This document shows, piece after piece, positions 17,124-48,389 of a stretch of 60,087 bases of DNA. Both the position numbers and the translations under genes were made by a program. Numbering within the stretch: position 1 is the first letter of the stretch; each line of letters starts with the position of its first letter. The stretch comes from a bacterium (GTDB lineage Bacteria; Patescibacteriota; Patescibacteriia; JAHIZJ01): contig JAUYLJ010000007.1 of the NCBI GenBank assembly GCA_030699685.1, positions 1 to 60,087 of the forward strand, read 5' to 3'. The notes under the pieces are model-generated. The model was not told the origin of the DNA. It was given only the letters and a program-made list of their open reading frames with translations, and ran no database searches.

Positions 17124-17166
17124 GCACGACTTTGCAAAATACTCTATTTTCAGTATAGTGGGTGGT

Positions 17167-19616: not shown

Positions 19617-20521
19617 CCTCATACCTACAGGTTGTGCCATCCGCGAAGGAGGGCGTGCCTCTCTCCGCACACACCACGTATCGGTTGGGGGGTCCGGCTG
19701 ATTTCTTAGTTGAAGTCAAAACTACGGATGAATTTGTCCAAGCCGTTATCGCGGCGCGGCATTTGGGTTTGCCATTGTTGATTCTGGGTCATGGCAGTAA
19801 CATTCTGGTCGCTGATGTGGGGTTTCGCGGCGTGGTGGTTAAGCTGAAAGCCCAGTCCATCGTCCAAAACGGAAACAGCGTCACGGCTGACGCGGGCGTA
19901 TCGATGGGTCGGCTGGCGCACTGGGCTGTTGACAGGGGATTGGCCGGCATAGAATTCGCGGTCGGTATCCCCGGCACGGTGGGAGGATCGGTGCGCGGAA
20001 ATGCCGGATGCTTCGGCGCGGAGATAAAGGATGTGGTCAGCGTGGTTGAAATATTAACTTCAAAAAACGAACGCCGGACTCTGGCAAACGCGAATTGCGC
20101 GTTCGGATATCGTGATAGTCTGTTTAAACATAGCGACTCCCTTATACTGAATGCCACATTCACGCTACATGATGCTGAGGCCGGTGAAGGGAAAGAGCTT
20201 CTACAACAATGGGGCAAGAAACGATTGGAGGAGCAAGATTTTTCCAAACCATCATCCGGCTGCGCGTTTAAGAACCCGCCGGGAAACGCCGCGGGAAAGA
20301 TGATCGACGATCTTGGTCTGAAAGGATTGAAGATCGGCGGCGCGCAAGTTTCCGAACGTCACGCGAACTTTCTTATCCATGACGGTAGCGCCAAGGCGGC
20401 CGACGTGCTTGAGCTCCTGAAACAGGTTCGTAGTAAGGTGAAAGATCGCTATGGTATCGAACTTGAACCCGAAATCATGCTGGCTGGATTCTCTGAAGAG
20501 GAGCTCAAGGGGATAGGATAG
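19613..20521 (+). CDS. murB: UDP-N-acetylenolpyruvoylglucosamine reductase
   Basis: FAD-binding PCMH domain (GGPADF, GHGSNIL), SGCAFKNP, and an ATGA overlap with murC. Confidence 0.92.
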   Translation: MTSYLQVVPSAKEGVPLSAHTTYRLGGPADFLVEVKTTDEFVQAVIAARHLGLPLLILGHGSNILVADVGFRGVVVKLKAQSIVQNGNSVTADAGVSMGRLAHWAVDRGLAGIEFAVGIPGTVGGSVRGNAGCFGAEIKDVVSVVEILTSKNERRTLANANCAFGYRDSLFKHSDSLILNATFTLHDAEAGEGKELLQQWGKKRLEEQDFSKPSSGCAFKNPPGNAAGKMIDDLGLKGLKIGGAQVSERHANFLIHDGSAKAADVLELLKQVRSKVKDRYGIELEPEIMLAGFSEEELKGIG

Positions 20522-32142: not shown

Positions 32143-32221
32143 CCGTGTTTAGAAGCTATCGGCAATTTGGTATTTGACCGCGCATGTATTATACTTACGG
32201 CGTAATTACTGATTGCGCAAA

Positions 32222-33145
32222 ATGAACACCAAACTCAAGACCGCGGTCTGGCTGGCACTGGGAACCGCCGTGATTTCCGGAACCAATAACTTCCTGACGA
32301 AATTCGCGGTGACGGTTATTCCAAACCCGACCGTTTTTACCTTTCTCAAAAATGCCATCGTTGGCCTTTTTCTTATCGGGCTCATCCTCCTTTTCGCTCG
32401 GTACAAGGAAATCCGCCAATTACAAAAGAATGACTGGCTGAAGCTGGCCGGGATCGGGATCGTGGGCGGCGGCATACCGTTTATCTTGTATTTCACGGGC
32501 TTGACCATGACCACGGCCGTCAGTGCTGCCATCATCCACAAAACGCTCTTTATCTGGGTGGCACTTTTAGCCGTACCGATACTGAAAGAGCGAGTCGGTT
32601 GGATCCAAGGCGCGGCTTTTGTATTGCTGATCGCCGGGAACTTTGTGTTAGGCGGACTGCATTCGCTGGCATTCGGGACTGGTGAGATGATGATTTTGGC
32701 CGCCACCTTGTTGTGGGCCGGAGAAAACATCCTGGCCAAGCACACGCTCAAAAATATCTCCAGTCTGACCGTAGCCGGAGCCCGGATGGTATTCGGATCA
32801 GTGATTATCTTCATCGTGGTACTGTTCCAAGGAAAAACCAGTTTGTTGACGGGATTAAACGGCGAGCAGTGGTTCTGGACGCTTCTTCCTTCGGTGCTGC
32901 TGCTGGGCTATGTGGTAACGTGGTACACGGCGCTGAAACACGCTCCGGCCACGTTGGTGGCGAGCATTCTTGTTCCGGCCACCTTCATCACCAGTTTTTT
33001 GCAGATGATTTTCATTGACCAGGCTATGAATCCGGAGACCCTTGTTACCGGCGTTTTATATGCCTTGGCGATCGCGCTTTTAGTTTGGCAATCTCTAAAG
33101 GTATCTTCCAATGCCACTGCAGACGCAGAGCGCGCTCACGCTTGA
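32222..33145 (+). CDS. EamA/DMT-family transporter
   Basis: 10 TM helices in two EamA-like halves. The ATG at 32222 is preferred to the TTG at 32213. Confidence 0.8.
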   Translation: MNTKLKTAVWLALGTAVISGTNNFLTKFAVTVIPNPTVFTFLKNAIVGLFLIGLILLFARYKEIRQLQKNDWLKLAGIGIVGGGIPFILYFTGLTMTTAVSAAIIHKTLFIWVALLAVPILKERVGWIQGAAFVLLIAGNFVLGGLHSLAFGTGEMMILAATLLWAGENILAKHTLKNISSLTVAGARMVFGSVIIFIVVLFQGKTSLLTGLNGEQWFWTLLPSVLLLGYVVTWYTALKHAPATLVASILVPATFITSFLQMIFIDQAMNPETLVTGVLYALAIALLVWQSLKVSSNATADAERAHA

Positions 33146-33872
33146 AGGTATCGCCCAATGTTCGAGGTATGCCTTTGGTCCAAACCGGCTGCATTATTGC
33201 GGACCGGACGCCAGCAGTGAAGTGGCGGCCTACATCGCCGAGAACCAAAGCGACCAGGGGCTATCAAACATCCTCCAGGGTTTTCAGACTATGTACCCTT
33301 ATTTAAAGACGATCGCCCACCAGAACGGTATTGGAGATCCTTTTGATCCGCGCGTGGTCGAAGCCTACTGGATTGGCAATGAGCTGCTCGAACCAATCGC
33401 GCCCAAAGCGTTCTACCGACATCTGGCAGAAGACCTGGATCTCAAAACCAAATATGAGCCAAAAATGTTTGATCAGTTGGTCAGCAAACTGCCACAAGGC
33501 GCCAAAATGCACCACTCATTTCATGTTTTCAATGCCTACAAACGGACCGGCCATGACGCGGTCTTCCACAACCTTGAGAGCATGGATTCTTGCCGGGTGA
33601 GCTGGGGTCAAGTGACGCGTCTTGAGGGACCGAAAATTATTATGCAGAGAAAACCCTTGGTGTTGGAAGGCCATCATTTACGGCTGGGTGATGCGGAAGA
33701 ATACGCGCTCAACCGACGTTTGGAAGAAGACGGAACTTTTGACGAAGTGAAGTCAGGCCAGTGGATCACAATGCACTGGCAGCAGCCCTGCGAAATCATT
33801 AGCGACAGACAGACACGCTGGCTGGAGCATTTCACGGTCAAGCACATCGCCCTGGCTAACCAGACTCTCTAA
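33111..33872 (+). CDS. Conserved hypothetical protein immediately upstream of the hydrogenase maturation protease
   Basis: 253 aa, abutting the next gene (stop 33872, ATG 33873). The C-terminal GQWITMHWQQP weakly recalls the HypC/HupF barrel. Confidence 0.5.
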   Translation: MPLQTQSALTLEGIAQCSRYAFGPNRLHYCGPDASSEVAAYIAENQSDQGLSNILQGFQTMYPYLKTIAHQNGIGDPFDPRVVEAYWIGNELLEPIAPKAFYRHLAEDLDLKTKYEPKMFDQLVSKLPQGAKMHHSFHVFNAYKRTGHDAVFHNLESMDSCRVSWGQVTRLEGPKIIMQRKPLVLEGHHLRLGDAEEYALNRRLEEDGTFDEVKSGQWITMHWQQPCEIISDRQTRWLEHFTVKHIALANQTL

Positions 33873-34247
33873 ATGGAAGTCTGGATATTCGGCAATCCGG
33901 ATCTGCCCGAAGACGCCTTGCCAATCACGCTCTTGCCTCGATTGCGGAAGCGCTTTCCAAAGCACTATTTCGTCTTGAAAGATCCTTTGGATGAGTGGGA
34001 GATGCCTTCACGACTGGTGATGATTGATACGGTGAAAGGGTTGAAGTCGGTGCGAGTCTTTAGCTCGCTTGATGAATTTGAAGCGACGCCGCGCGTCTCT
34101 ATGCACGACTATGATCTCAACACACAGCTGAGGTTTTTGGACAAATTGGGGAAATTACCTGAGTTTCAGATTGTCGGGGTGCCTGATCATCTGAGTCCGG
34201 ACCAAGCGCTTGAACAAGTAGCGGGGGAGTTGGAGAAAATTGCGTAA
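33873..34247 (+). CDS. Hydrogenase maturation endopeptidase-like protein (HycI/HyaD family)
   Basis: 124 aa. IFGNPDLPEDALP fits the GN.L..DD..G pattern. Asp (VMIDTV) and His (SMHDYD) occur at the spacing expected for metal ligands. Confidence 0.6.
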   Translation: MEVWIFGNPDLPEDALPITLLPRLRKRFPKHYFVLKDPLDEWEMPSRLVMIDTVKGLKSVRVFSSLDEFEATPRVSMHDYDLNTQLRFLDKLGKLPEFQIVGVPDHLSPDQALEQVAGELEKIA

Positions 34248-34301: not shown

Positions 34302-35423
34302 TTATGTAAGAAATACGCCATAAAGGATTCCGGCCAGCGTTGAATAGGCGATGACCAGGAATATGTAAGTGGCAGTTTTCACATTCCCAAGCACTTTTCG
34401 CACCACGAGCATATTCGGCAAGCTGAGCGACGGTCCGGCCAGTAAAAGCGCCAGCGCTGGTCCTTGGTTCATTCCTTTAGCAATTAACGCTTGAAGAATC
34501 GGAATCTCGGTCAGGGTGGAAAAGTACATAAACGCTCCAAACACTGACGCAACCAGGTTAGCGACGATTGAATTGGAGCCGACAATTCTTTCAATCAATT
34601 CCTGCGGCAAGTAGGGCATGATAAATCCGGCGATAAACACACCGATGAACAACAGCGGCAGGAGCATCTTGGTGAATGACCAGCTTTCATTGAGCCATTG
34701 CTTGCGGGTGTCCTTTTGAAGCATGGACGCGATACCTGCCACTCCCAGCGCGAGCAAAGCCATCAGACCGTATTTTATCGGCGTTGCTATTTGCAATCCA
34801 TTCACCACCAGTATGCCGACTAAGGTTCCAAAAAAGAATACTGCCTGCCATTTTGGCATAGACCGCACCTGTTCATCAGGGGTGATTAATTGTGCGCTTT
34901 CGCTTTTTTCTCTGAATATCAAGTTCATGGTAAGGCCCACCAGAATAGAAAGCCCAATGGCGGCAATCGCCCGGGCCGCGCCGATGTTCACACCCAGAAC
35001 CGAGAAGGTTAGGAATATGGCGGCGATGTTGATGGCCGGGCCGGAAAATAAAAAGGTGATAGCAGGACCAAGTCCCGCGCCGCGCTGGCGGATAGAAGCA
35101 AACATGGGGAGAATAGTGCAGGAGCATACGGCCAAAACCAATCCTGATACCGAGGCGATGCCATAGGACACGATTTTTTTCGTGCCTGAACCTAAGTATT
35201 TCAGAATCGCGCCTTGGCGCACGAATGCGGCAATGGCTCCGGCGATGAAAAAAGCCGGAACCAGACAGGTCAGTACGTGCTGGCGGGAGTATTCGTTGAG
35301 CAAGGAAAAGCCGGACAACAGCGCGTCAATAAAGCTTTCGTTTGATAAGGGCAGGAAATAGAAAACTAGGAAAAGCCCGGTGAGCAATGCGAATATCTTT
35401 GTTTCTTTTTTCATATCAATCAT
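34302..35423 (-). CDS. Permease (DUF318/ArsP-like family)
   Basis: Polytopic, 373 aa. It shows the classical association with a redox-active disulfide protein 2 gene and arsR. Confidence 0.75.
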   Translation of the reverse strand: MIDMKKETKIFALLTGLFLVFYFLPLSNESFIDALLSGFSLLNEYSRQHVLTCLVPAFFIAGAIAAFVRQGAILKYLGSGTKKIVSYGIASVSGLVLAVCSCTILPMFASIRQRGAGLGPAITFLFSGPAINIAAIFLTFSVLGVNIGAARAIAAIGLSILVGLTMNLIFREKSESAQLITPDEQVRSMPKWQAVFFFGTLVGILVVNGLQIATPIKYGLMALLALGVAGIASMLQKDTRKQWLNESWSFTKMLLPLLFIGVFIAGFIMPYLPQELIERIVGSNSIVANLVASVFGAFMYFSTLTEIPILQALIAKGMNQGPALALLLAGPSLSLPNMLVVRKVLGNVKTATYIFLVIAYSTLAGILYGVFLT

Positions 35424-35432
35424 TATTGATAT
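35413..35432. promoter_or_regulatory. ArsR-type operator palindrome, copy 2 (ATATCAAT-N4-ATTGATAT)
   Basis: Perfect 8-4-8 inverted repeat overlapping the permease start codon. Its arms are identical to the copy at 35993-36012. Confidence 0.65.
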
Positions 35433-35447
35433 TTACCACAAAAAAAT

Positions 35448-35681
35448 TTATTGCAGCCATTCTTTAATTTCCTCCACATCGGGAATCCGGCCGGAAGATT
35501 TTACCACTTCATCAATCACCAGAGCCGGCGTCGACATCACTCCATAGGCGATAATTTTGTCCATGTCGTAGACGTGTTCGACCTGCGCGTCTTCTTTTTT
35601 TAACTCTCCTATTGCTTGGCGAGCTTGGTTTTCCAGTCGCTGACAATTGGGGCAGCCGGAACCTAGTATTTTGATCATCAT
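35448..35681 (-). CDS. Thioredoxin-fold redox-active disulfide protein 2
   Basis: 77 aa, MIKILGSGCPNCQ (CxxC). Confidence 0.85.
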   Translation of the reverse strand: MMIKILGSGCPNCQRLENQARQAIGELKKEDAQVEHVYDMDKIIAYGVMSTPALVIDEVVKSSGRIPDVEEIKEWLQ

Positions 35682-35989
35682 ACGCTCATTACGTCTTTTA
35701 ATAATTTTTGAAAATTGGCAATCGCTTTTTCATCTCGGAAATAGATAACCTTCGTCCCTTCTTTTCGGTAATCAATCAGCCCTGCGTCCCGGAGCGCTTT
35801 GAGGTGGTGGGAAACGAGGTTCTGGGGCAAGCCCAGGGGTTCAAAAATATCGCACACGCAGCGTTCGCCTTGCTTCAGTAGACAGAGGATTTTCAGCCGG
35901 TTTGGCTCGTTTAACGCCCGAAGATAGCCGGAAACTTGCCCGACGCCTTTACCCTTTTTCGTATGAATGTTACAGCAGTCCTGTTGCAT
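35678..35989 (-). CDS. arsR: ArsR/SmtB-family transcriptional regulator
   Basis: LNEPNRLKILCLLKQGERCVCDI...QNLVSHHLKALRDAGL, a winged helix-turn-helix with the CVC metal site. Confidence 0.88.
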   Translation of the reverse strand: MQQDCCNIHTKKGKGVGQVSGYLRALNEPNRLKILCLLKQGERCVCDIFEPLGLPQNLVSHHLKALRDAGLIDYRKEGTKVIYFRDEKAIANFQKLLKDVMSV

Positions 35990-35992
35990 AAT

Positions 35993-36012
35993 ATATCAAT
36001 TTATATTGATAT
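35993..36012. promoter_or_regulatory. ArsR-type operator palindrome, copy 1 (ATATCAAT-N4-ATTGATAT)
   Basis: Perfect 8-4-8 inverted repeat between the -10 box and the arsR start codon. Confidence 0.7.
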
Positions 36013-36039
36013 TATAGCGGTTCAAAAAACGGCGTCAAG
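36011..36039 (-). promoter_or_regulatory. arsR promoter TTGACG-17-TATAAT (minus strand)
   Basis: Plus strand has cgtcaa at 36034-39 and attata at 36011-16. Confidence 0.7.
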
Positions 36040-36085
36040 CTCGGACCGGTAGTTAACTACTCAGGGACCACCATCCGTATATAGA

Positions 36086-36137
36086 GCTAAACGAGCCTAG
36101 CTAAGTGCTATCGGGGGCACGTCAACTGATGTTTAGC
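36086..36137 (-). repeat. 52-nt imperfect palindrome with GCTAAAC...GTTTAGC ends, 4 nt after the TauE stop (attC-like candidate)
   Basis: The terminal 7-mers are perfect complements. There is an inner GTGC/GCAC stem and no U-tract. Confidence 0.5.
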
Positions 36138-36141
36138 AGCC

Positions 36142-36864
36142 TTAGTTCGGTAATAGCAAGAACTTCAAGCCTATGAGGAGAAGAAAGATTGAAATAACCA
36201 TTCGGAATTTGTTTTGAGGCACGCGATCAACGATTTTTTTCGCCGCCCCTGCTCCGATGAATGAAGCGGGAATAAACAATAATAATCCCCATAGAAATCT
36301 CTGCTCAAGGCTTACCTTATTCAGTAAGTAAGTAATAATTCGCGTGGAATCAATGAATAACGCGATCGCTCCAGCTGTTGAAATGTATACTGCTTTCGGT
36401 AAGTCGAAAGCTGAAAGAAAAATTCCTCGAACCGCTCCACCAACACCAAAAATTCCCGCAAAAAATCCTGATAGTCCACCTCCGAATAGTGCTGTTACCG
36501 TTTTTTTAGGTATTTTGAACGTAGGTTTGAGAAAAAGGAAGAGGACGTAAGTGATCAAAAATCCTCCTAAAATTTGTGAAAGAAGTTTTTCGGATACTGA
36601 AAATACAATACTTGCCCCCAGATAGCTGGCGGCGATTCCCGCGATTCCAAAGGCAAGTATGAGTTTCCAGTTAAACCCTTTTTTGAAAAAAAGAATTTTC
36701 CAAATGTCACCAAACCAGTGAATCACACCTACCAACAAAAGCGTCTGCGGAAGCGGCAAAAAGAACAGCAAGATCGGCACCATGATTGTAGAGGTGCCAA
36801 AACCCGTGAGAGTGCCCACTCCTCCCGCCAGAACGGTAAGCAGGGCGATGAAAATAATTTCCAT
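36142..36864 (-). CDS. TauE/SafE (DUF81) family anion exporter
   Basis: 240 aa with 7-8 TM helices and Gly-rich TM motifs (GGVGTLTGFGTSTI, GGLSGFFAGIFGVGG). Confidence 0.8.
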   Translation of the reverse strand: MEIIFIALLTVLAGGVGTLTGFGTSTIMVPILLFFLPLPQTLLLVGVIHWFGDIWKILFFKKGFNWKLILAFGIAGIAASYLGASIVFSVSEKLLSQILGGFLITYVLFLFLKPTFKIPKKTVTALFGGGLSGFFAGIFGVGGAVRGIFLSAFDLPKAVYISTAGAIALFIDSTRIITYLLNKVSLEQRFLWGLLLFIPASFIGAGAAKKIVDRVPQNKFRMVISIFLLLIGLKFLLLPN

Positions 36865-36901
36865 GGTATGTGTTTTGAAATATGGAAGGGGTTTCAGCTA
36901 A

Positions 36902-36951
36902 CGTTTCGGTATCATGCGAAGTTGCGTAGCAATCTGGGTGTTTACGAAACG
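36902..36951. repeat. Hairpin CGTTTCG-N36-CGAAACG. Its 5' context (AACGTTTCGGTATCAT) matches the repeat family at 40.9-42.2 kb.
   Basis: AACGTTTCGGTATCAT against AACGTTTGCGTATCAT (copy B) gives 14 of 16 identical positions. Confidence 0.5.
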
Positions 36952-36969
36952 GGCTAATGACCTAATTCT

Positions 36970-37359
36970 TTACGAATGTTCTTTGAAAAATGGTTTGAAG
37001 TATAGCTCTATTTTTAATTTGCATATCTCATCTTTGGTAGCCCATCGTTGTTCTATATGTTCTTCGCTTAGTGTAAGATCTCCAGAAATTATTTCAGTTG
37101 AGTAAATCGTAAAACGATGAGTATTGTCCCCTTTATTATCCAAATCAAACTCGTATACGCCAAGAATCTCAAGCGGTTGAATATCTAAACCAGTTTCTTC
37201 TTTTACCTCACGGGCAATACCAGCCAAGGGGTTTTCATCGGGTTCAAGTTTGCCGCCGGGAAAATCCCAATGCAGGGGAAAATACTTGGCGTTTTCAGAT
37301 CGTAAGCCAATCAAGTACTTGTCACCTTTTTTCACAACTGCTTTTTGAATGAGATTCAA
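36970..37359 (-). CDS. Nudix hydrolase
   Basis: Nudix box GGKLEPDENPLAGIAREVKEETGL. TTG start. Confidence 0.85.
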   Translation of the reverse strand: MNLIQKAVVKKGDKYLIGLRSENAKYFPLHWDFPGGKLEPDENPLAGIAREVKEETGLDIQPLEILGVYEFDLDNKGDNTHRFTIYSTEIISGDLTLSEEHIEQRWATKDEICKLKIELYFKPFFKEHS

Positions 37360-37416
37360 AAGAATTTACATTAATTGTATAGCCCCGAAGTGAGAAGCTG
37401 ATGTCGTATACTTCGT

Positions 37417-37428
37417 GTTAGGCGATGG
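37417..37428. repeat. Conserved 12-mer GTTAGGCGATGG, copy 1. It contains the canonical integron core GTTAGGC (GCCTAAC on the gene strand).
   Basis: Identical to 38104-38115. It is part of the hairpin GCC..ACGAAGT-N18-ACTTCG.GGC on the minus strand. Confidence 0.6.
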
Positions 37429-37442
37429 AACACACCACATGG

Positions 37443-37738
37443 ATGACTGCTTTGAGAGGGTGGGGAGGAATTTCCTCCCCAGAGGGTTGGGTTATTGATT
37501 GACTATCCGCAATGCCGCCTTGGCAGCTTCCTCCATGGTTTTGCCGTAGCCGCGGACATCGTGACTTTCTGCTGCCGGGAGATTGTCGAGCCGAGCCCTT
37601 CCCCTTCCAATTAAGCGGACTTGGAAGGGAGATGGACAGTTCGGATTGTGGTGTAATGAGAACGTTCGCTCACACAGTTGTCTTGTATATGTCTCCACAG
37701 AGCACCTCCTTATATCCAAACCCTCTCAAAGCAGTCAT
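37443..37738. repeat. 19-bp perfect inverted repeat (ATGACTGCTTTGAGAGGGT / ACCCTCTCAAAGCAGTCAT) bracketing a 75-codon ORF
   Basis: The arms are at 37443-37461 and 37720-37738. The GGGGAGG-aattt-CCTCCCC hairpin at 37462-37480 lies just inside the left arm. Confidence 0.85.
37492..37719 (-). CDS. Small hypothetical protein (75 aa, TTG start), possibly HicB/UPF0150-like
   Basis: The C-terminal GYGKTMEEAAKAALRIV resembles the G.G.T.EEA...A...I motif of HicB-type antitoxins. This is a weak call. Confidence 0.35.
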   Translation of the reverse strand: MDIRRCSVETYTRQLCERTFSLHHNPNCPSPFQVRLIGRGRARLDNLPAAESHDVRGYGKTMEEAAKAALRIVNQ

Positions 37739-37801
37739 TGTAAAAAGAGTTCTTTCACCTAAGGTTTGCGTATAACACGCAGTGTTATATAAAGTACTAT
37801 A

Positions 37802-38062
37802 TTATTTCCACTCTATTATGTACATGCCGTATTTTTCTAATTCTTCTTGTGGCCAATATCTTGTTGGGCTTTCATGTTTTAGAACTTTTTTTACCTTTCG
37901 TGTATATTCACGGCCGGTATATTCTTTTGTCTGCGGATCCCATTCTCGGAATTTTATTTGATCACCATCTTGCAGGTCAAAATCCGCTAATTTAAAATCG
38001 TTTGAGGTGTTTTTATCGAGGTCAAAATAGTCTGGCCACAATTTCTTTTCTACGGTTTTCAT
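37802..38062 (-). CDS. DUF3850 (ASCH/PUA-like) domain protein
   Basis: KLWPDYFD...DGDQIKFREWDPQTKEYTGREYTRKV is the typical DUF3850 pattern. Confidence 0.75.
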   Translation of the reverse strand: MKTVEKKLWPDYFDLDKNTSNDFKLADFDLQDGDQIKFREWDPQTKEYTGREYTRKVKKVLKHESPTRYWPQEELEKYGMYIIEWK

Positions 38063-38103
38063 ACGTTTAATGGGAAGAAATAGTACGGTATTTTATAAGC
38101 CAT

Positions 38104-38115
38104 GTTAGGCGATGG
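38104..38115. repeat. Conserved 12-mer GTTAGGCGATGG, copy 2, starting 3 nt after the Nudix stop on the gene strand
   Basis: Identical to 37417-37428. Confidence 0.6.
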
Positions 38116-38117
38116 TA

Positions 38118-38534
38118 TTATTCACTATGTTTAAATGGATTAAAACCTTGTTTAATGAGATTCTGTTCGGAAATGAATAGGGGTTGTGGCGGGTTAGTCC
38201 AATCAAACCATGACCATTGCTCACATTTTTCCGGTTCCATAATTTGCAGATCACCCGAATTATATTCCGCGGTCATAAATATAGTGATGTAGTGTTTGCC
38301 TTCAACCGGGAAAATGTCGTTGGTAGCAGTAGCAAAGTTTACATTTTTAATGCTCAAACCAGTCTCTTCCAATGTTTCACGCACCGCACATTCTTCCCAT
38401 GGCTCATTAAATTCAAGATGACCGCCAGGAAAACACCACGAACCATCACCATGAGCATTTTTACGTTTACCAAAGAGAACTTTGCCATCTTTTACAATGA
38501 GAACCCCAACCCCGACTTTTGGTCTATTGTCCAT
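38118..38534 (-). CDS. Nudix hydrolase (MutT-like)
   Basis: Nudix box GGHLEFNEPWEECAVRETLEETGL. Confidence 0.88.
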   Translation of the reverse strand: MDNRPKVGVGVLIVKDGKVLFGKRKNAHGDGSWCFPGGHLEFNEPWEECAVRETLEETGLSIKNVNFATATNDIFPVEGKHYITIFMTAEYNSGDLQIMEPEKCEQWSWFDWTNPPQPLFISEQNLIKQGFNPFKHSE

Positions 38535-38646
38535 ACATTTAAATATTATTTACTTAGACGGTTTCAGGAATTTAGTGAAACGAGTTTGTTAAATACTTCA
38601 TGAGGTTTGTGGAAGTTAGTGTGAATTTCATTTTTCAAATTATGTC

Positions 38647-40740
38647 TTATTTATTTACTTTCAAAAATTTTGCATTAATAGCTACAATAACTGTACTTAA
38701 GGACATTAGCGCCGCTCCTATAGCAGGGGAGATTAAGATTCCATAACCATACAACACTCCAGCAGCTAGAGGTATGGCAACTACGTTGTATCCAGTTGCC
38801 CAGAATAAGTTTTGAATCATTTTACTGTACGTTGCTTTTCCAAACAAGATTAGAGAAGTAACATCTTTTGGATTGCTGTTTACTAATATTATATCTGCCG
38901 TTTCAGCGGCAACGTCTGTCCCTGATCCGATAGCTATTCCAATGTTTGCTTGTGCTAGGGCAGGAGCATCGTTGATGCCATCTCCAGTCATAGCGACAAA
39001 TTCTCCTTTGCTTTGGAGTTCTTTGATTTTTTCTAATTTCTCATGTGGCAGTACTTCTGCAAAAAATCCTTCTAGTTTTAATTTCGTAGATACTGTTTTG
39101 GCGATTACTTTATTGTCTCCTGTTAACATCCAACATTTTATTCCAGACTCTTGAAGTTGTTTAATCGCCTCATATGATTCAGGCCTTATTTTGTCTGCAA
39201 GTGTAATAACTCCGACTGCTTTGTTGTCCACTATTACATAGACTAATGTTCCGCTATCATCAATTTCTGAAGCTGGAATGTTTACATTGTTCTTTGTAAT
39301 GTATTTTTGGCTTACAAGTTTGACAGTTTTTCCGCTTACTTTTCCTTCTACACCTTCTCCTTTCATTACTTTGAAGTCTGTTGCTTTAACATCTTCAGCG
39401 CCAATCTGTTTTGCTTTGGCAATTATTCCTTTAGCTATTGGATGTTCTGAATTCTTTTCAAGTGATGAGGCTAACTCAATTATTTGCTTTTCATTGTGGC
39501 TTTTGTCAAATATTGCAATTGCAGCGACTCCAAATTTTCCTTCGGTTAATGTTCCTGTTTTATCAAATATAATTGTTGATATTTTTCTTGAGTTTTCAAA
39601 TGCTGTTCTGTTCCTTATCAATAAACCATTCTTAGCAGACAATGAAGTAGAGACAGCGCTTACCAAAGGAATAGCTAATCCCAGAGCATGAGGACATGCA
39701 ATAACCATGACTGTAACCATCCTTTCTATGGCAAAGGCTGTGTCAATACCATAAATAATCCAAAAGGCAAACGTGCCCACGCCTGTTGTTACTGCAACGA
39801 TAGACAGCCATTTCGCTGCAACATCAGCCAGCCTTTGTGTTTTAGATTTTGATGCCTGAGCATCTTTAACAAGATTGATGACTTTATTAAGATAAGATTC
39901 TTCCCCCGTGCCTTCAACCGTAACTTCCAGAATTCCATCTCCATTGATAGAGCCACCTATAACCTTATCATCCTTCTTTTTCTGGACAGGTTTTGATTCC
40001 CCAGTAAGCATTGACTCATCAAGATAGCTATTTCCTTTTACAATAATACCGTCAGTGGGAACTTTCTCTCCTGCCTTGACAAGAATAATATTTCCTTTTT
40101 TCAGCTCAGAAATTTTAACATCTATTGTTTTTCCATTTTGAATTAAATGAGCAGTATCTGGCAATAACTGAGCTAATTTTTCCAAGGCCTTCGATGCTCC
40201 TAAAACAGATTTCATTTCAATCCAATGTCCAAGAAGCATCACATCAATAAGTGTGGCTAATTCCCAGAAGAAAAACTTCCCCCGTAATCCGAATACGACA
40301 GCAGTGCTATAAATGTAAGCGACAAAAATAGCCAACGCTATTAATGTCATCATGCCTGGCTGTTTCTTTTTTAGCTCTTCAAAAATGCCTTTAAGAAATG
40401 GCCATCCTCCGTAAAAGAATATGAAGCTTGATAATATCCATAAAACATATTTATCTCCTGCAAAACTGTAACTTATGCCAAGAAACTGCTGTATCAATGG
40501 GGACAAAAGGAGAATAGGGATTGTGACAATGATTGAGACTAAAAATCTTTTTTTGAAGTCTCTTACCATGTGCTTGTGATGCTCTGAGTGGTCATATTTT
40601 TTGTGCATTGATTGACTATGATCAGATGATTTGTCATCCTCTATTTTGCTAAGTTTAGCACCGTCCATAGTGCACTTTCCTGGCTTGTCATATTCCATTC
40701 CGCATTTTGGACATTTGTATTTATTCATATTAGCCACCAT
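38647..40740 (-). CDS. copB: Copper-translocating P1B-type ATPase (CopB-like, CPH motif) with an N-terminal zinc-ribbon and a His-rich segment
   Basis: TGES, CPH (ACPHALGLAIP), DKTGTLT, GDGINDAPAL, N-terminal CPKCG...GKC, and SDHSQSMHKKYDHSEHHKH. Confidence 0.9.
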   Translation of the reverse strand: MVANMNKYKCPKCGMEYDKPGKCTMDGAKLSKIEDDKSSDHSQSMHKKYDHSEHHKHMVRDFKKRFLVSIIVTIPILLLSPLIQQFLGISYSFAGDKYVLWILSSFIFFYGGWPFLKGIFEELKKKQPGMMTLIALAIFVAYIYSTAVVFGLRGKFFFWELATLIDVMLLGHWIEMKSVLGASKALEKLAQLLPDTAHLIQNGKTIDVKISELKKGNIILVKAGEKVPTDGIIVKGNSYLDESMLTGESKPVQKKKDDKVIGGSINGDGILEVTVEGTGEESYLNKVINLVKDAQASKSKTQRLADVAAKWLSIVAVTTGVGTFAFWIIYGIDTAFAIERMVTVMVIACPHALGLAIPLVSAVSTSLSAKNGLLIRNRTAFENSRKISTIIFDKTGTLTEGKFGVAAIAIFDKSHNEKQIIELASSLEKNSEHPIAKGIIAKAKQIGAEDVKATDFKVMKGEGVEGKVSGKTVKLVSQKYITKNNVNIPASEIDDSGTLVYVIVDNKAVGVITLADKIRPESYEAIKQLQESGIKCWMLTGDNKVIAKTVSTKLKLEGFFAEVLPHEKLEKIKELQSKGEFVAMTGDGINDAPALAQANIGIAIGSGTDVAAETADIILVNSNPKDVTSLILFGKATYSKMIQNLFWATGYNVVAIPLAAGVLYGYGILISPAIGAALMSLSTVIVAINAKFLKVNK

Positions 40741-40869
40741 TTATAAATTAAAAGTTATAATCATTGTATTAGTACTGTTTTTAATAAACACATTTTATAA
40801 CGAAGTGGAGAGAACATATTATTAACCCCCTCATTTCTTATTCTCCGTTAGAAAAATATTTTTTGTGTT

Positions 40870-40935
40870 GCGTATAGCGTTTGTGTCTCATATGCTGTGT
40901 CGCGGAAGTGCATGGCAGATATACGCTGTTGTGCG
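40870..40935 (+). repeat. Structured repeat copy A (attC-like imperfect palindrome)
   Basis: GCGTATAGC-GTTT-GTGTCTCATATGC...GCAGATATACGC-T-GTTGTGCG. It aligns with copies B and C. Confidence 0.8.
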
Positions 40936-41039
40936 TTGATTTAGCTTTTCTTCCATTGACATTTTAGTGTAGCTGTGTCAACCTCTTCACAAGTGGTTTT
41001 AGTCCTTCTAGTTGATCATTCCTAAGGAGGGTGTTTCGT

Positions 41040-41342
41040 ATGCCAAAACTCAACATGTCTATTCGGCATCAGCTTCCGCGAGAGGAAGCGCTTACCCGCA
41101 TCCAGCGGTTGCTGGGCGAGGTGAAGAGAGAACAAGGTGACAAGATTAGTGATCTGCACGAACAATGGAGCGGCAACGCCGGTAACTTCAGCTTCAAGGC
41201 GGCGGGTTTCTCGGTTTCCGGTACTCTGGAGGTGACTTCTTCGGAAGTCAGGTTGAACGGCAATCTCCCGTTCGCAGCCAACTTTTTCAAGGGCAAGATC
41301 GAAAACACGATTCGTCAGCGGGCCCAGCAGCTACTGGCTTGA
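41040..41342 (+). CDS. Polyhydroxyalkanoic acid system (PHA_gran_rgn) family protein
   Basis: MPKLNMSIRHQLPREEALTRIQ...SGTLEVTSSEVRLNGNLPFAANFFKGKIENTIRQRAQQLL fits the family pattern. AAGGAGG lies 9 nt upstream of the ATG. Confidence 0.7.
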   Translation: MPKLNMSIRHQLPREEALTRIQRLLGEVKREQGDKISDLHEQWSGNAGNFSFKAAGFSVSGTLEVTSSEVRLNGNLPFAANFFKGKIENTIRQRAQQLLA

Positions 41343-41364
41343 AGTTCTCTAGACCATCCCGTGA

Positions 41365-41394
41365 GGGTCCTGCACATCGGACCCTATTTTTTTT
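41365..41394 (+). terminator. Rho-independent terminator
   Basis: GGGTCC-tgcacatc-GGACCC followed by TATTTTTTTT. Confidence 0.8.
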
Positions 41395-41406
41395 AAAGAC
41401 GAATTG

Positions 41407-41471
41407 GCGCACAACGTTTGCGTATCATCTGCTGTGTCGCAGTAGCGCATGGCAGATATACACTGTTCAAA
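41407..41471 (+). repeat. Structured repeat copy B
   Basis: GCGCACAAC-GTTT-GCGTATCATCTGC...GCAGATATACAC-T-GTT. Confidence 0.8.
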
Positions 41472-41486
41472 ATATTTTCTTCAAAT

Positions 41487-42131
41487 TCACAAAATGGGCT
41501 TTGATCTCGCAATTTTCCATACTGCCAATGTGCTGTATCCGATAGAAAGAATTGCAAGTAAAATGACAATCGCTAGAGTATTAATACCGACTGGAAGTTT
41601 TAATGGTGCAGATATTAATAGTCCTATGCTTACCACAATGGTGACGGCTAGGAGAACAATTGAGGATTTTAGCATTGAATAGATTCTATTTTTTAGCCTG
41701 ATATTACTTTCGAGAAGGTCGGCCATCCTATTGCTCCATCTTTTTCTTTCATCATGGTCTAGTCTTACGCCGTTATCCATATTAAAAGAGCCTTGTTCCT
41801 GCATCGTAAGTATTCTCACGCCTTCGAGTTGTTGGTAGAGTTCTACAATACCATTTCTATCAAAGACCTCCTCTGCATTATCAGTCACGATTCTTTTGTA
41901 TTCACCAAGTATTTCCTCTTCCGACTTGTCAATAAACTCATCTGGCGCCCTTGCTCCTATACGCCAGAGCTGAACTATGCGCACCACCCTACCACGATAA
42001 TTATCGATGGCCGTTTGCACTTTATCGAGCTTAAACACTACGAATGTGCCTCCTAATGCAAGTATAGCAGCGCATGTTTGTGAAATAGTGCTCAAGGTAT
42101 AGAACCATGTACTTGATTCAGTGAAATTCAT
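41487..42131 (-). CDS. Three-TM membrane protein with a central cytoplasmic helical domain, unknown function
   Basis: 214 aa, with 1 TM at the N-terminus and 2 TM at the C-terminus. A+T-rich. Flanked by a 15-bp inverted repeat. Confidence 0.55.
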   Translation of the reverse strand: MNFTESSTWFYTLSTISQTCAAILALGGTFVVFKLDKVQTAIDNYRGRVVRIVQLWRIGARAPDEFIDKSEEEILGEYKRIVTDNAEEVFDRNGIVELYQQLEGVRILTMQEQGSFNMDNGVRLDHDERKRWSNRMADLLESNIRLKNRIYSMLKSSIVLLAVTIVVSIGLLISAPLKLPVGINTLAIVILLAILSIGYSTLAVWKIARSKPIL

Positions 42132-42155
42132 ATTATTGAGAAAATATTTTGAATG

Positions 42156-42215
42156 GCGTACAACGTTTGCGTCTCATCCGAAGTATTCAATATTTCGGAT
42201 AGACGCTGTTGTGTG
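42156..42215 (+). repeat. Structured repeat copy C
   Basis: GCGTACAAC-GTTT-GCGTCTCATCCGAA-gtattcaata-TTCGGATAGACGC-T-GTTGTGTG. This forms a 13-bp stem with a single bulged C plus an outer ACAAC/GTTGT stem. Confidence 0.85.
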
Positions 42216-42226
42216 GAGTTGACCGG

Positions 42227-42808
42227 CTACTTCTTCAGGCATTCATTTAGAAGTTCTGGAAATTCGACGGTTCCTAAGTCGTCAAGACAAAAATGCCCTT
42301 TATTAGCAAATTCTCGATATGTCACCTGATCAATGTTTTCTCGAATTAGAGCGACTGTTTTTAGAATACTTCCATCATCATTTGTTGAGTAAAAAACAGT
42401 AACACCGCTGGTCCGTGAAACAAGACCCCGATCCATTGAAAAGTCAAAGAAATCTGCTGTGTCAGAGCGAGGGTTATTGGAAGGGTTCGTCCAGGGTGCA
42501 ACGAGGATTACCTTACCGACACGGAGATCTGGATGTTCGCTGAGATATCGGATAAGAAAACCACCGCCACAGCTGTGTCCAACGAGCATTGTTTCAGCAG
42601 TCAGCTCAAAACGCTCCAACTCTTTTTTCCATACAGTATAGCGTGGTTGCCACGGTGTTGGGATTTCGAGTGCGACGGTAAAAATATCCTTGAGTATCAA
42701 TTGCTTTGAAAGCCAAGGAAACCAATGATCGTTACTATTCGTTGGGCGCGCCGGATCGTAATATTCGTCTTGATCAGGTCGTCCGGGGATTAAAATCGCG
42801 TTTCTCAT
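42227..42808 (-). CDS. YdeN/RBBP9-family serine hydrolase (alpha/beta fold)
   Basis: MRNAILIPG...HWFPWL...LVGHSCGG (GxSxG)...ILVAPW. Start trimmed from 42919 to M38. Confidence 0.75.
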   Translation of the reverse strand: MRNAILIPGRPDQDEYYDPARPTNSNDHWFPWLSKQLILKDIFTVALEIPTPWQPRYTVWKKELERFELTAETMLVGHSCGGGFLIRYLSEHPDLRVGKVILVAPWTNPSNNPRSDTADFFDFSMDRGLVSRTSGVTVFYSTNDDGSILKTVALIRENIDQVTYREFANKGHFCLDDLGTVEFPELLNECLKK

Positions 42809-43016
42809 AAACTTAGATGATGTTGGTAGCCGGTCAATTTCACACAACTCGTTTTTTAGCGAACCAGTCTCACCTCTACCCACCATAGTTGCATGAAAAA
42901 CAGAATAAGGCCAGAACATATGTCATTCCGCTGAAAAGGCTCAATTACGCTAACCTATATTGACAGTTAGCCTCCATCCGGCTACCCTGGAATCCCGCAT
43001 GTTGCCTTTGACATGC

Positions 43017-43556
43017 TTATTCAGCTCGCTTCCGCGTGCTTTTGTTCCCGGCTGACCTACTCAGTCGGGATTTTTTATTTTTGGAGAGATGCTTAATAAA
43101 AGCTTGTCCGTAGGGAGTAAATCCAGCCTTGGTATAAAAGGCGTGAGCGCGTTTCAGCTCAGCACTGGATTCGAGACGTATCGAATCAATATTTTCTTTA
43201 CGCGCCCATTGTATTGCCGCGGCCAGCAGTCGTTGCGAAACACCCTTGCCTTGCCGGGATTTTTTGACGAACATTTCTTCAATCTCCGCGCAATACCCGC
43301 CCTTTCTTATCTGGGGAATTTTGTAGATGGTCAGTATGCCGATGTAGCTATTTTTTTCTTGCGCTAAAAAGATGGCCGAATCAGGCGAGGCAAGAACGTG
43401 ATCAAAAAGTTCTCCGCCTTTCTTCTGAGCGGATGTTGAAACGAATTTCTTCCCCGGTTCAATGATGGCCATACAAGCCGCACGGAAATCATCAAGCAAC
43501 CGGAGGACGTGTTTTTTATGAGAGCTTTTGGCTCGCAATATTCTCATCTTCTTCAA
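43017..43556 (-). CDS. GNAT-family N-acetyltransferase, coupled to the hydrogenase large-subunit gene
   Basis: Motif A is RQGKGVSQRLL. The TTG start overlaps the hydL stop (TTGA). An alternative ATG lies at 43547. Confidence 0.8.
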   Translation of the reverse strand: MKKMRILRAKSSHKKHVLRLLDDFRAACMAIIEPGKKFVSTSAQKKGGELFDHVLASPDSAIFLAQEKNSYIGILTIYKIPQIRKGGYCAEIEEMFVKKSRQGKGVSQRLLAAAIQWARKENIDSIRLESSAELKRAHAFYTKAGFTPYGQAFIKHLSKNKKSRLSRSAGNKSTRKRAE

Positions 43557-44863
43557 ACAGCGAGAGTGGCGCCCTTCACCTTCAGTTTCAGGAAATGCGA
43601 GGCGCAGCTCATGCAGGGGTCATAGGCGCGGATAAGTTTTTCCAGCTCGAGCTGAAGCGAGTCTTTGGTCGGATTTTCCGGAAGCATTGTTTCAATCAGC
43701 CGAGCCATGTCCTGCTCGATGTTGATCTGGTTCTGGCCGGTAGGGACGATGATGTCGCCTTCGACGACGTTGCCGGCGGTGTTGATGGTGACTTTGTGAT
43801 AGAGCGTGCCGCGCGGCGCTTCAATCACGCCGATTCCGGTGCCTTCTTTTTTCGTCGGCTCGACCAGCGGCTCTTTGGTAAACTTCGTGTTTTGGAGGAT
43901 ATCGACGGCTTGGTCAAGACAATGCAGAATCTCGACGGCCTGGGCGAGGTTGTTGTGATAGATGTTGGTTGAGGGAAAGAGCTCCAGCGTTTGTTTGAGC
44001 GTTTCCTTGGTTTTAGGATGCAGCGTGTCTTTGGCCAGGTTGATCCGAGCCAAAGCGCCGACCATATACGACTTGCCTTTGTGTTTGTAGCCCGAAGCGT
44101 GGGAATAGGGGATGATCACGTGTTCCAGATGATCGCGGTAGTCTTTTTCCCGGATAAAATCTCCCGCGTCGCTGATAATATGGCCGTTCAGATAGCTAAA
44201 GGGTTTGGCTACCAGAGCCATAAAGGATGTTTGCCGGTCGAAGCTGAAATCAGATTCCTCGAAGAGCTTGACCGTTCGCAGCACGGCCGGGCGCACTGAC
44301 TCCAGTTTATTGATTGCTTCTTCTGTCTCGGCCTCAGTCGGCACTTTCATGAAACCGCCGACCATCGGGTTCATTCCATGGACGCTGCGTCCGGCGATGA
44401 TGATGGAGAGATAATTGCCGGCGGCTTTGATGGCGAAGGCGTCGTGAAGAATCTGGTGCTGTGCTGGATCATTTTCATCAAAATCAAAAAACGCGTCCTT
44501 GCCGAACATGTCGGGCAGGGCGAAGAGATACAGATGAAGGGCGTGATCGCGTATGTTCAGCCCGTACATCGTCAGGTGCTTCATCAGTACAGACTGCTCG
44601 GAGGGGACGATACCTAGCGCGTCTTCGCAAGCTTCGATGCTGCAAGTGAGGTGGGCGTTAGAACAGGTGCCGCAGATACGGGCCAGCAGAGAGGGCAGGG
44701 CTTTGGCTGCTTTGCCGCGCATGGCCTGGGTGTAAAAACGCTTGTACTCCGAAATCCCGAATTGGCAGCGGGTGACTTTCCCTTTTTTTACCTCAACGTC
44801 AAGAGTGGCCGAACCTTCGACTTTGGTAATTTCTCTTTTGAGTGTCAGGTCGACGAGGTGCAT
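43553..44863 (-). CDS. [NiFe] hydrogenase large (catalytic) subunit, group 3-like
   Basis: N-terminal RICGTCSNAH (RxCGxC) and C-terminal DPCMSCASH (DPCxxCxxH), followed by a 13-aa extension. 436 aa. Confidence 0.9.
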   Translation of the reverse strand: MHLVDLTLKREITKVEGSATLDVEVKKGKVTRCQFGISEYKRFYTQAMRGKAAKALPSLLARICGTCSNAHLTCSIEACEDALGIVPSEQSVLMKHLTMYGLNIRDHALHLYLFALPDMFGKDAFFDFDENDPAQHQILHDAFAIKAAGNYLSIIIAGRSVHGMNPMVGGFMKVPTEAETEEAINKLESVRPAVLRTVKLFEESDFSFDRQTSFMALVAKPFSYLNGHIISDAGDFIREKDYRDHLEHVIIPYSHASGYKHKGKSYMVGALARINLAKDTLHPKTKETLKQTLELFPSTNIYHNNLAQAVEILHCLDQAVDILQNTKFTKEPLVEPTKKEGTGIGVIEAPRGTLYHKVTINTAGNVVEGDIIVPTGQNQINIEQDMARLIETMLPENPTKDSLQLELEKLIRAYDPCMSCASHFLKLKVKGATLAV

Positions 44864-48260: not shown

Positions 48261-48389
48261 TGATGGTGAGTATAGCACTGGATTTGTAGCTTGAAAAGCA
48301 TTACCGTGCGCGCGAGGCTGTACATTGTTTTTTTGCAAAATATATGCTATACTCATATCACGTTGGAGGAAAAATTAATAAAAGAATAC

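Follow-up and report, generated by a model that had tools for sequence, protein, structure and literature searches.

A gene block inserted between hydL and hycI

The first 60,087 nt of contig JAUYLJ010000007.1 (referred to below as the window) carry, between an arsR operon and a hydrogenase operon, a block of short genes at 36086-43016 that an initial annotation had described as an integron-like cassette array with no integrase in view. Open reading frame (ORF) and Pfam scans bore out the list of functionally unrelated genes, from TauE through YdeN, on which that description was built. The genes of the block and of its surroundings are:

33873-34247, plus strand: hycI-like gene, convergent with hydL; left border of the insertion described below
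34302..36038, minus strand: operon of arsR, a thioredoxin-like gene and a permease gene; host-like G+C content (GC) of 0.47-0.50, no attC-type site by any model
35678-35989, minus strand: arsR (ORF list and Pfam)
36142-36864, minus strand: TauE (Pfam)
36970-37359, minus strand: NUDIX, here Nudix1 (Pfam)
37492-37719, minus strand: 75-aa ORF, no Pfam match
37802-38062, minus strand: DUF3850 (Pfam), GC 0.356
38118-38534, minus strand: NUDIX, here Nudix2 (Pfam)
38647-40740, minus strand: CopB-like P-type ATPase (Pfam)
41040-41342, plus strand: PHA_gran_rgn (Pfam), the PHA-like gene; the sole inverted gene, GC 0.541
41487-42131, minus strand: 214-aa protein, no Pfam match; the three-transmembrane (3-TM) protein of the initial annotation
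42227-42919 as an ORF, minus strand: Ser_hydrolase/YdeN-type; the Pfam match starts at residue 62 of this long ORF
43017-43556, minus strand: GNAT acetyltransferase (Pfam), with the hydrogenase genes beyond
43553-44863, minus strand: hydL, hydrogenase large subunit; right border of the insertion

The closest relatives of the hydrogenase large subunit (62-74% identity) were found in metagenome-assembled genomes (MAGs) of Patescibacteria, Parcubacteria and Kerfeldbacteria. The host is therefore a member of the candidate phyla radiation (CPR)/Patescibacteria, as the initial annotation had guessed. Synteny was examined by tblastn in 68 related loci. In nearly all of them hydS-hydL is followed, in convergent orientation, by the hycI-like gene and by homologues of 33111-33872 and 32213-33145, and the distance from the end of hydL to the hycI homologue is usually about 0-100 nt, as against 9.3 kb in the window. 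Because hydL abuts hycI in nearly all relatives, the segment 34248..43552 (9.3 kb) was considered an insertion with respect to related CPR genomes. It comprises the arsR operon, the cassette array and the GNAT gene, and is thus wider than the block first flagged. At the hydL/hycI junction, tblastn detected none of the inserted genes in any related locus whose sequence extends beyond hydL. With more than 60 such loci covered, the block is missing from every one, rather than being an invariant, syntenic part of these genomes.

The drop in G+C content first noticed in the block was confirmed: GC was 0.405 over 36000-43016 and 0.505 outside the insertion, and 1-kb segments between 36 and 43 kb ranged from 0.355 to 0.452, compared with 0.45-0.56 elsewhere. 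Gene by gene, values inside the block extended from 0.356 (DUF3850) to 0.541 (the PHA-like gene), the host being at about 0.505. In composition the block is a mosaic, not a uniformly foreign segment. The arsR operon lies inside the insertion and is probably not a cassette; it was left out of the array because of its host-like GC and its own promoter-like site (a sigma-70-like site with 11 of 12 matches at 36038-36011, minus strand, heading the operon). No tRNA genes were found in the window, and Rfam, whose collection lacks an attC family, gave no relevant match at gathering or E-value thresholds. Exact-protein look-ups of the window's genes returned only a 1.5-kb Logan contig, identical to 40024-41518.

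A single repeat family exceeded chance expectation in the region. Its copies, named A, B and C, are 71-77 nt in length and are read on the plus strand; B and C had already been noticed, while A had been missed. Repeat, pattern and covariance model searches found no further copy elsewhere in the 60 kb. Scores are given for two covariance models, R1, built from 21 metagenome copies only, and R2, a broader model:

40866..40942, plus strand: site A, decayed (AAC changed to AGC), weak stem; R1 67.5 bits, R2 60.3 bits (with non-canonical pairs)
41403..41476, plus strand: site B, hairpin and AAC/GTT intact (GCACAAC...GTTCAAA); R1 59.4 bits, R2 51.8 bits
42152..42222, plus strand: site C, intact; R1 66.7 bits, R2 66.5 bits; dG -16.4, z -3.5

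On the plus strand, site C reads GTACAAC-GTTT, a stem arm with one extra C, a loop, the second stem arm, and T-GTTGTGT. The conserved ends of the three copies are GCGYAYARC-GTTTGYGTMTCAT ... GATAKACRC-T-GTT; the central part of C is unlike that of A/B, although a hairpin is still formed, and the fold of site A was no better than that of shuffled sequences. Spacings are 537, 749 and 684 nt, the span from A to C being 1.36 kb. Since the three copies lie at 5'/5', 3'/3' and 5'/3' gene junctions, a role as promoters or terminators is ruled out for them.

The site family and its recombinase in other genomes

When sites A, B and C were condensed into a strict pattern, it was found in 23 metagenome loci; among viral contigs the site pattern had no match. 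The flanks of the pattern matches end in ...YAAC and begin with GTTR..., and in two loci they are perfectly reverse-complementary (TCGACTAAC/GTTAGTCGA and TCAGCTAAC/GTTAGCTGA). Model R1 recovered 59 sites (E <2e-4) in the metagenome loci, with lengths of 67-198 nt. They form co-oriented arrays: nine sites in 7.6 kb (L079), seven in 5 kb (L090), five (L089), and four each in L092, L085 and L070. Spacing ranges from 0.16 to 5.7 kb (median 655 bp), with one ORF per unit. The longest ORF of a cassette usually lies opposite to the model strand (32 of 36).

The AAC and GTT triplets are invariant or nearly so across the 59 family members. Their 15-bp stem is 97% paired, and 10 of the 15 pairs show compensatory changes; double-change cells numbered 180, shuffles giving 71 ± 7, and pairing fell to about 21% once the partner was shifted by a column. 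This alignment was fitted to the model, and an unfitted MAFFT alignment gave the same picture of the stem. The hairpin is conserved in structure rather than in sequence, and its length is variable.

Further, the cassettes bear a signature at their ends. The 12 nt following the GTT of one site were compared with the reverse complement of the 12 nt preceding the AAC of the next site. Adjacent sites (41 pairs) agreed at 8.4 of 12 positions, whereas unrelated sites agreed at 4.9 ± 1.6 of 12 and the two flanks of one and the same site at 5.2. The identity often runs over 20-25 nt, save for a conserved GATGT/GAAAT difference. The match between adjacent pairs indicates that the sequence outside AAC/GTT moves with the gene lying between two sites, and not with the site, which places the crossover at the AAC/GTT triplets, as in integrons.

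No dispersed copies were found in 1.07 Mb of related CPR DNA, which held one further clustered array only. Among the 68 related hydrogenase loci, one (L031, Patescibacteria MAG041) contains a four-site co-oriented array at 16653-20226, 5-9 kb beyond hydL; no recombinase was found in the part of that contig examined. A 97-nt, G+C-rich variant of the site (GC 0.63-0.67) is nearly identical across contigs (L079 956-1114 and 7514-7610; L087 37-133 and 826-922; L085 35-131; L080 2697-2793). In L079 and L087 it bounds an ORF-less unit of 157-158 nt, possibly a non-coding cassette that recurs. For two arrays or recombinase loci, dnaA or dnaN is only a few kb away (L085 35-7353; L096 9382-18105); positions close to the replication origin may be preferred.

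The association of the family with a recombinase rests on seven independent loci (L075, L078, L093-95, L096, L097-98, L103 and L105), of which L075 has an integrase-proximal region that falls outside the alignment of attI-like sites. The geometry common to them is a recombinase gene, an attI-like AAC|TCGTTTCTATACGAA, and then sites and divergent ORFs. L078 (2.2 kb) is a complete miniature system with recombinase, attI-like site, ORFs and two sites, in the following order:

a gene for a 270-aa tyrosine recombinase
about 95 nt upstream of it, GTCGCCTAAC|TCGTTTCTATC...
a 158-aa ORF on the opposite strand
a 121-nt site with 10-bp perfect R boxes
a 114-aa ORF
a 77-nt site

In L093-95, L096, L097-98, L103 and L105 the motif NNNN-AAC|TCG(T/C)T(T/A)(C/T)TAT(A/G)CGAA precedes the recombinase gene, and in all of them but L105 a second TATACGAAC is present about 45 nt beyond it. 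Further upstream, small ORFs on the opposite strand are separated by R2 matches on the expected strand. L075 has the same layout with a partial recombinase homologue (about 38% identity). In that locus, about 350 nt of G+C-richer non-coding sequence (12500-12850) lie between the array and the recombinase homologue; they gave no credible Rfam match and may represent either an RNA of unknown type or an extended attI region.

The sequence preceding the AAC of the attI-like site varies with the first cassette, while that following it is constant. This split places the junction at AA|C of the model strand, which on this basis corresponds to the 'bottom strand' of integrons, with each cassette's site downstream of its ORF. 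The model strand is presumably the one that folds and is cleaved. Since the plus strand of the window is the model strand, the minus-strand genes of the block have the orientation typical of the family, and the PHA-like gene is inverted.

The L078 recombinase passed the NCBIfam model NF040815 ('XerA / integron integrase'; 225.7 bits, cut-off 220) and failed the integron integrase model TIGR02249 (221.5 bits in two stretches, cut-off 265). Its best match among solved structures was VchIntIA (2a3v, 149 bits), followed by archaeal XerA (147 and 143 bits) and E. coli XerD (84 bits). Residues 172-240 of VchIntIA have residues 168-193 of the query as their only counterpart, which leaves the IntI-specific insertion short of about 43 residues. 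In the 120 best clusters, homologues are 73-97% identical and 259-293 aa long, and come from Patescibacteria or Parcubacteria where named.

Cassettes, decayed sites and a probable attI-like remnant in the window

With limits set at AA|C, the sites of the window define three cassettes, preceded by a group of older ones:

42164-42847 (684 nt), minus strand: YdeN cassette, site C plus ORF
41415-42163 (749 nt), minus strand: 3-TM cassette, site B plus ORF
40878-41414 (537 nt), ORF on the plus strand: PHA-like cassette, site A plus inverted ORF
36142..40740, minus strand: older cassettes with decayed sites, TauE to CopB; per-gene GC 0.356-0.513

The end complementarity seen in the metagenome arrays is present here too. 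The three best inverted repeats of the region (I1, I2 and I4) each bracket one gene. I2 (42208-42230/42826-42848; 23 nt, 91% complementary) brackets YdeN and contains the family-typical GAGTT/GAAAT mismatch. I1 (37443-37466/37715-37738; 24 nt, 92% complementary) brackets the 75-aa ORF and is the outer part of an alignment of about 50 nt that extends from GTTAGGCGATGG (37417) to CTTAGGTGAAAG (the reverse complement of 37767-37756). I4 (41459-41480/42139-42160; 22 nt, 86% complementary) brackets the 3-TM gene. In addition, the flank that follows site A, GTTGTGCG, is complementary to CGCACAAC, which precedes site B. The long YdeN ORF (start at 42919) crosses both the cassette boundary and the attI-like remnant described below. 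Because I2 puts that boundary within its first 37 codons, the ORF was taken to be over-extended, and the start is probably the ATG at 42808 (MRNAILIPG...) instead of 42919. A promoter scan showed no enrichment inside the array, and the PHA-like gene has, as stated in the initial annotation, its own terminator (41364-41385).

Profiles of the two halves of the site (5'-half and 3'-half hidden Markov models, HMMs) were searched over the whole window, that is, 120 kb of strand. Together with the covariance models they pointed to four decayed sites, E to H, and one further candidate:

36892..36951, plus strand: site E, downstream of Nudix1; 5' half TTTCAGCTAAC-GTTT-CGGTATCAT, no recognisable 3' box; 5'-half HMM 36892-36917, E 2.9e-4, rank 3 in the window behind C and B
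37377..37430, plus strand: site F, downstream of the 75-aa ORF; 3' half CGTATACTTCG-TGTTAGGCGATGG, weak stem; 3'-half HMM 37415-37430, E about 1
37751..37798, plus strand: site G, downstream of DUF3850; CCTAAG-GTTT-GCGTAT ... ACACGC-AG-TGTTATAT, central hairpin deleted; R1 12 bits, E 1.1; R2 12.2 bits, E 1.5; 5'-half HMM 37753-37778, E 0.15
38055..38116, plus strand: site H, downstream of Nudix2; 3' half TGTTAGGCGATGG, vestigial AC-GTTT 5' end, no stable hairpin; 3'-half HMM 38103-38116, E 3.5; fold z +0.3; weak alone, its weight coming from position and strand
38547..38619, plus strand: candidate vestige behind the copB-like ATPase gene; R2 11.3 bits, E 2.6, not significant alone

Leaving A, B and C aside, the five best half-site matches include four in gaps of the block, each on the plus strand and just behind a minus-strand gene; the sole comparable match elsewhere is at 35326 on the minus strand. 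These gaps make up about 1% of the sequence searched, so such clustering is very unlikely to arise by chance, although the A+T-rich composition may play a part in it. Moreover, once the flank of site G is reverse-complemented, it can be aligned in register with that of site F for about 50 nt, a stretch that includes I1.

These matches also allowed the palindromes first proposed for almost every gap to be sorted. Exact GCCTAAC/GTTAGGC cores had been reported at 37417 and 38104. GTTAGGCGATGG is indeed present at both positions and matches the 3' end of the family (TGTT-NNNN-GATG), but only as half-sites, without a hairpin. As half-site profile matches fall in the gaps of the block, these motifs were read as real R''-type half-sites of decayed attC-type sites. 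Two other palindromes did not hold up. GCTAAAC..GTTTAGC at 36086-36137 is present, but it folds like shuffled sequences (z -0.1 and -0.3) and matched no model, and GCTAAC..GTTAGCC at 42949-42972 is a 24-nt mini-hairpin located in the spacer beyond the attI-like remnant, with neither fold nor model support, and is not a family member. The pattern as first described is confirmed in part. Besides site A, the earlier inspection had missed the decayed sites at 36892-36951 and 37751-37798 and the inverted repeats I1, I4 and I2.

The right-hand end of the array was located as follows:

42826..42870, plus strand: attI-like remnant and array boundary, AATTTC-ACAC-AAC|TCGTTTTTTAGCGAAC; the part to the left is the end of the YdeN cassette

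TCGTTTTTTAGCGAAC directly follows the AAC of the boundary (42846-42848) and resembles the integrase-proximal site of intact loci, e.g. TCGTTTCTATACGAAT in L093. The best match of an attI HMM in the window was at 42835-42863 (E 0.053), the next one having an E-value of 18. On the basis of I2 and of a comparison with the attI regions of L078, L093, L096 and L097, 42826-42870 is probably an attI-like remnant. A longer segment, 'D' (42822-42990), was a candidate for one more attC; its fold is poor (z -1.5), and the attI-like remnant is the better reading. The 3' end of the GNAT gene lies about 130 nt beyond the attI-like site, where the recombinase gene starts in intact loci (L078, L093, L096, L097 and L103 were compared). 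A search for a tyrosine recombinase, IntI-type or other, or for a remnant of one, by tblastn and by phmmer --max against all ORFs of at least 60 aa, found none in the 60-kb window.

Two observations concern individual proteins of the window. The 214-aa 3-TM protein had 12 homologues in 5.8 billion sequences. In the contigs examined, their genes directly followed a gene of the DndB family or had ResIII/CHAT genes as neighbours (L110 4781-6642; L114 1-7302), which hints at a defence-related membrane effector; in L110 a Ser_hydrolase gene lies 2 kb from the 3-TM homologue, as it does in the window. Outside the insertion, four diverged 43-nt direct repeats (48749-49871) lie inside a 1020-aa ORF (48291-51353), consistent with a protein of repeated domains.

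A probable orphaned cassette array and its relation to known systems

In our judgement, the block is likely a cassette array, now orphaned and in part fossil, that was built by an integron-like system of site-specific recombination; most records in which this system occurs are labelled Patescibacteria. The idea of a cassette array without an integrase, advanced in the initial annotation, is supported by the arrays of the same family elsewhere with a recombinase and an attI-like site, by the complementary cassette ends, and by the lack of a recombinase in the window. A narrower reading, on which we consider the case evenly poised, is that the family represents a distinct integron lineage of Patescibacteria and, occasionally, of other bacteria. 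Its integrase would be a 270-aa IntI/XerA-like protein without the IntI-specific domain, its attC sites would have a mirror-image asymmetry and long cassette-specific outer stems, and its choice of strand and site would differ; the window would be a fossil from which the integrase has been deleted.

As the most parsimonious course of events, the following can be proposed. An integron-like platform would have lain between hydL/GNAT and hycI, gathering cassettes at the attI-like site, with the youngest (YdeN, 3-TM and PHA-like) nearest to it. By analogy with integrons, cassettes would enter and leave through strand exchange at AA|C of a single strand in folded form, G|TT being the corresponding point of the opposite one. 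The enzyme would be the 270-aa recombinase of the IntI/XerA clade that, in intact relatives, is encoded divergently upstream, beside the attI-like site. The six older cassettes (CopB to TauE) would have decayed to half-sites and site A would have lost its AAC. The recombinase gene would then have been lost, the GNAT gene now being at its place. For cassettes to move again, a recombinase would have to be supplied from another part of the genome; sites B and C keep all conserved features and could be substrates for such an enzyme in trans. The expression of the cassettes by read-through from the hydrogenase-GNAT operon is plausible, and the likeliest route, because all but one share its orientation and no enrichment of promoters was seen.

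Several points weigh against this view. In the absence of a recombinase within the window, activity of the system at this locus can only be presumed. Of the elements described, only A, B and C are statistically solid in the window: E-values are marginal for E to H (2.9e-4 to 3.5) and for the attI-like remnant (0.053), whose support comes from position, strand and flank complementarity. Even the scores of A, B and C (52-67 bits) are partly high by construction, the training copies having been found with a pattern derived from these same sites; as the scores are not independent, the weight falls on the relatives' own contexts. I4 is offset by 11 nt (GTTGTACGCCA) from the register of the other cassettes, a displacement that a crossover out of register or a small insertion could have left behind. 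The 3-TM cassette has no backing as a mobile unit from the contexts of its homologues: the contigs examined had no family sites nearby, and the genes adjoin DndB or CHAT/ResIII. As to the CPR host range, L103 (1-20813) contains a recombinase 81% identical to that of L078, an attI-like site and a two-gene cassette (ChrB_C and MFS) amid sugar ABC transporter, LacI and aldo-keto reductase genes, a neighbourhood that is not CPR-like and suggests a platform moving between phyla.

A full integron architecture is here tied to a recombinase without the extra domain and to sites of reversed asymmetry. If this is confirmed, the definition of the integron would widen, programs that insist on the IntI C-terminal signature would need broader search criteria, and the family would offer a natural experiment on how strand selectivity arises. 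It would also provide a mechanism for the turnover of accessory genes in CPR bacteria, ultra-small symbionts whose gene gain is poorly understood; the genes captured here include those for a copper ATPase, Nudix hydrolases, a sulfite-exporter-like protein and a hydrolase.

By definition, integrons have an integrase that bears a unique extra domain; this domain is held necessary for recombining folded attC sites and, in classical IntI, contacts extrahelical bases. Integrons have been reported mostly from Proteobacteria, less often from a few other phyla and, in recent work, from Archaea. Arrays of attC sites without an integrase are called CALIN (clusters of attC sites lacking an integrase), a term that, like the program IntegronFinder, reportedly goes back to Cury et al. 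in 2016. The block could be an ordinary CALIN, with standard attC sites recognisable by classical IntI and by the attC model, yet we consider this unlikely. The AAC/GTT ends of the family are near RYYYAAC/GTTRRRY, and AAC-GTTTG is shared with the bottom strands of the aacA4 and OXA-1 attC sites; the architecture is canonical, with a divergent recombinase beside an attI-like site; and VchIntIA is the closest structure to that recombinase by sequence, NF040815 being named 'tyrosine recombinase/integron integrase'. However, the recombinase does not reach the TIGR02249 cut-off and is some 43 residues short at the IntI-specific insertion, and the sites differ in shape. In attC bottom strands, extrahelical bases lie near L'' (3' arm) and the unpaired central spacer is roughly symmetric (PMC5027507). 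Asymmetry was compared with that of nine class-1 attC sites placed in the same geometry (integrase to the right, strand antisense to the cassettes), folded with DNA parameters and with AAC/GTT forced to pair. In all nine, unpaired bases were equal in number on the two arms or more numerous on the 3' arm, as described (PMC5027507), whereas in 54 of 58 sites of the new family they were more numerous on the 5' arm than on the 3' arm (means of 6.3 and 2.7). In the new family these bases consist of a GTTT bulge directly behind AAC plus a single extrahelical C. The spacer has 4 nt on one arm and 1 nt on the other, the symmetric unpaired spacer of 5-6 nt is absent, and the family model R2 did not match the class-1 attC sites (L101 and L102). 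The initial caveat that the elements deviate from canonical attC was correct, and the deviation goes further, to a mirrored asymmetry and a recombinase that is not a classical IntI.

The enzyme might instead be a housekeeping Xer recombinase, with the hairpins as Xer-dependent modules (dif/pdif-like) or as hitch-hikers at a dif-like site, which we hold to be quite improbable. It is Xer-sized, passes the XerA model NF040815, is about equally similar to archaeal XerA and to IntI, and is highly conserved over the 120 clusters; two arrays are also near dnaA. Nevertheless, Xer-dif and pdif sites are 28-bp duplexes (two 11-bp arms and a 6-bp spacer) in alternating orientation, whereas the sites of the family are long, covarying hairpins, all in one orientation and with cassette-specific ends; complementary cassette ends and, by the recombinase gene, an attI-like site with a repeated TATACGAA are integron features. 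Generic REP (repetitive extragenic palindrome) or MITE (miniature inverted-repeat transposable element)-like repeats or terminators in a horizontally acquired island are rejected as very improbable; a REP-like system had been rated in the initial annotation as equally possible. The elements are palindromic and intergenic, and site G and part of A match a simple terminator scan, but they occur alike at all three types of gene junction, are not followed by T-runs, and have no copy outside 36.9-42.9 kb in the 60 kb. The 1.07 Mb of related DNA held a single clustered array, and in metagenome loci the sites form arrays linked to a recombinase.

No description of integrons in CPR/Patescibacteria was found in the literature searched, which is not proof of absence. 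Read as an orphaned cassette array, the block resembles chromosomal integrons and CALIN in that single-gene, promoterless cassettes, each ending in an imperfect AAC...GTT hairpin, form co-oriented arrays. As in CALIN, the window has three sites in 1.36 kb and no recombinase in 60 kb, the sites having been called with a family-specific and not with the canonical model. Like integrons, the family has its crossover mapped to AA|C/G|TT, a cassette start complementary to the cassette's own site, and intact loci in which a divergent tyrosine recombinase stands beside an attI-like site with repeated putative binding motifs. Unlike integrons, it has a 270-aa recombinase without the IntI-specific additional domain, unpaired bases on the AAC-side arm of the bottom-type strand and not near L'', cassette-end complementarity of 20-25 nt with its conserved mismatch, and hosts that are mostly Patescibacteria. 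Archaeal integrons share with it an integron architecture outside the classical bacterial phyla, described from MAGs; their IntIs keep the IntI-specific domain and their attCs have the same kind of fold as those of bacteria (Ghaly et al. 2022; PMC9668308), whereas the family keeps neither. Since archaeal integrons retain both canonical features, they are not the same variant as the family found in the window.

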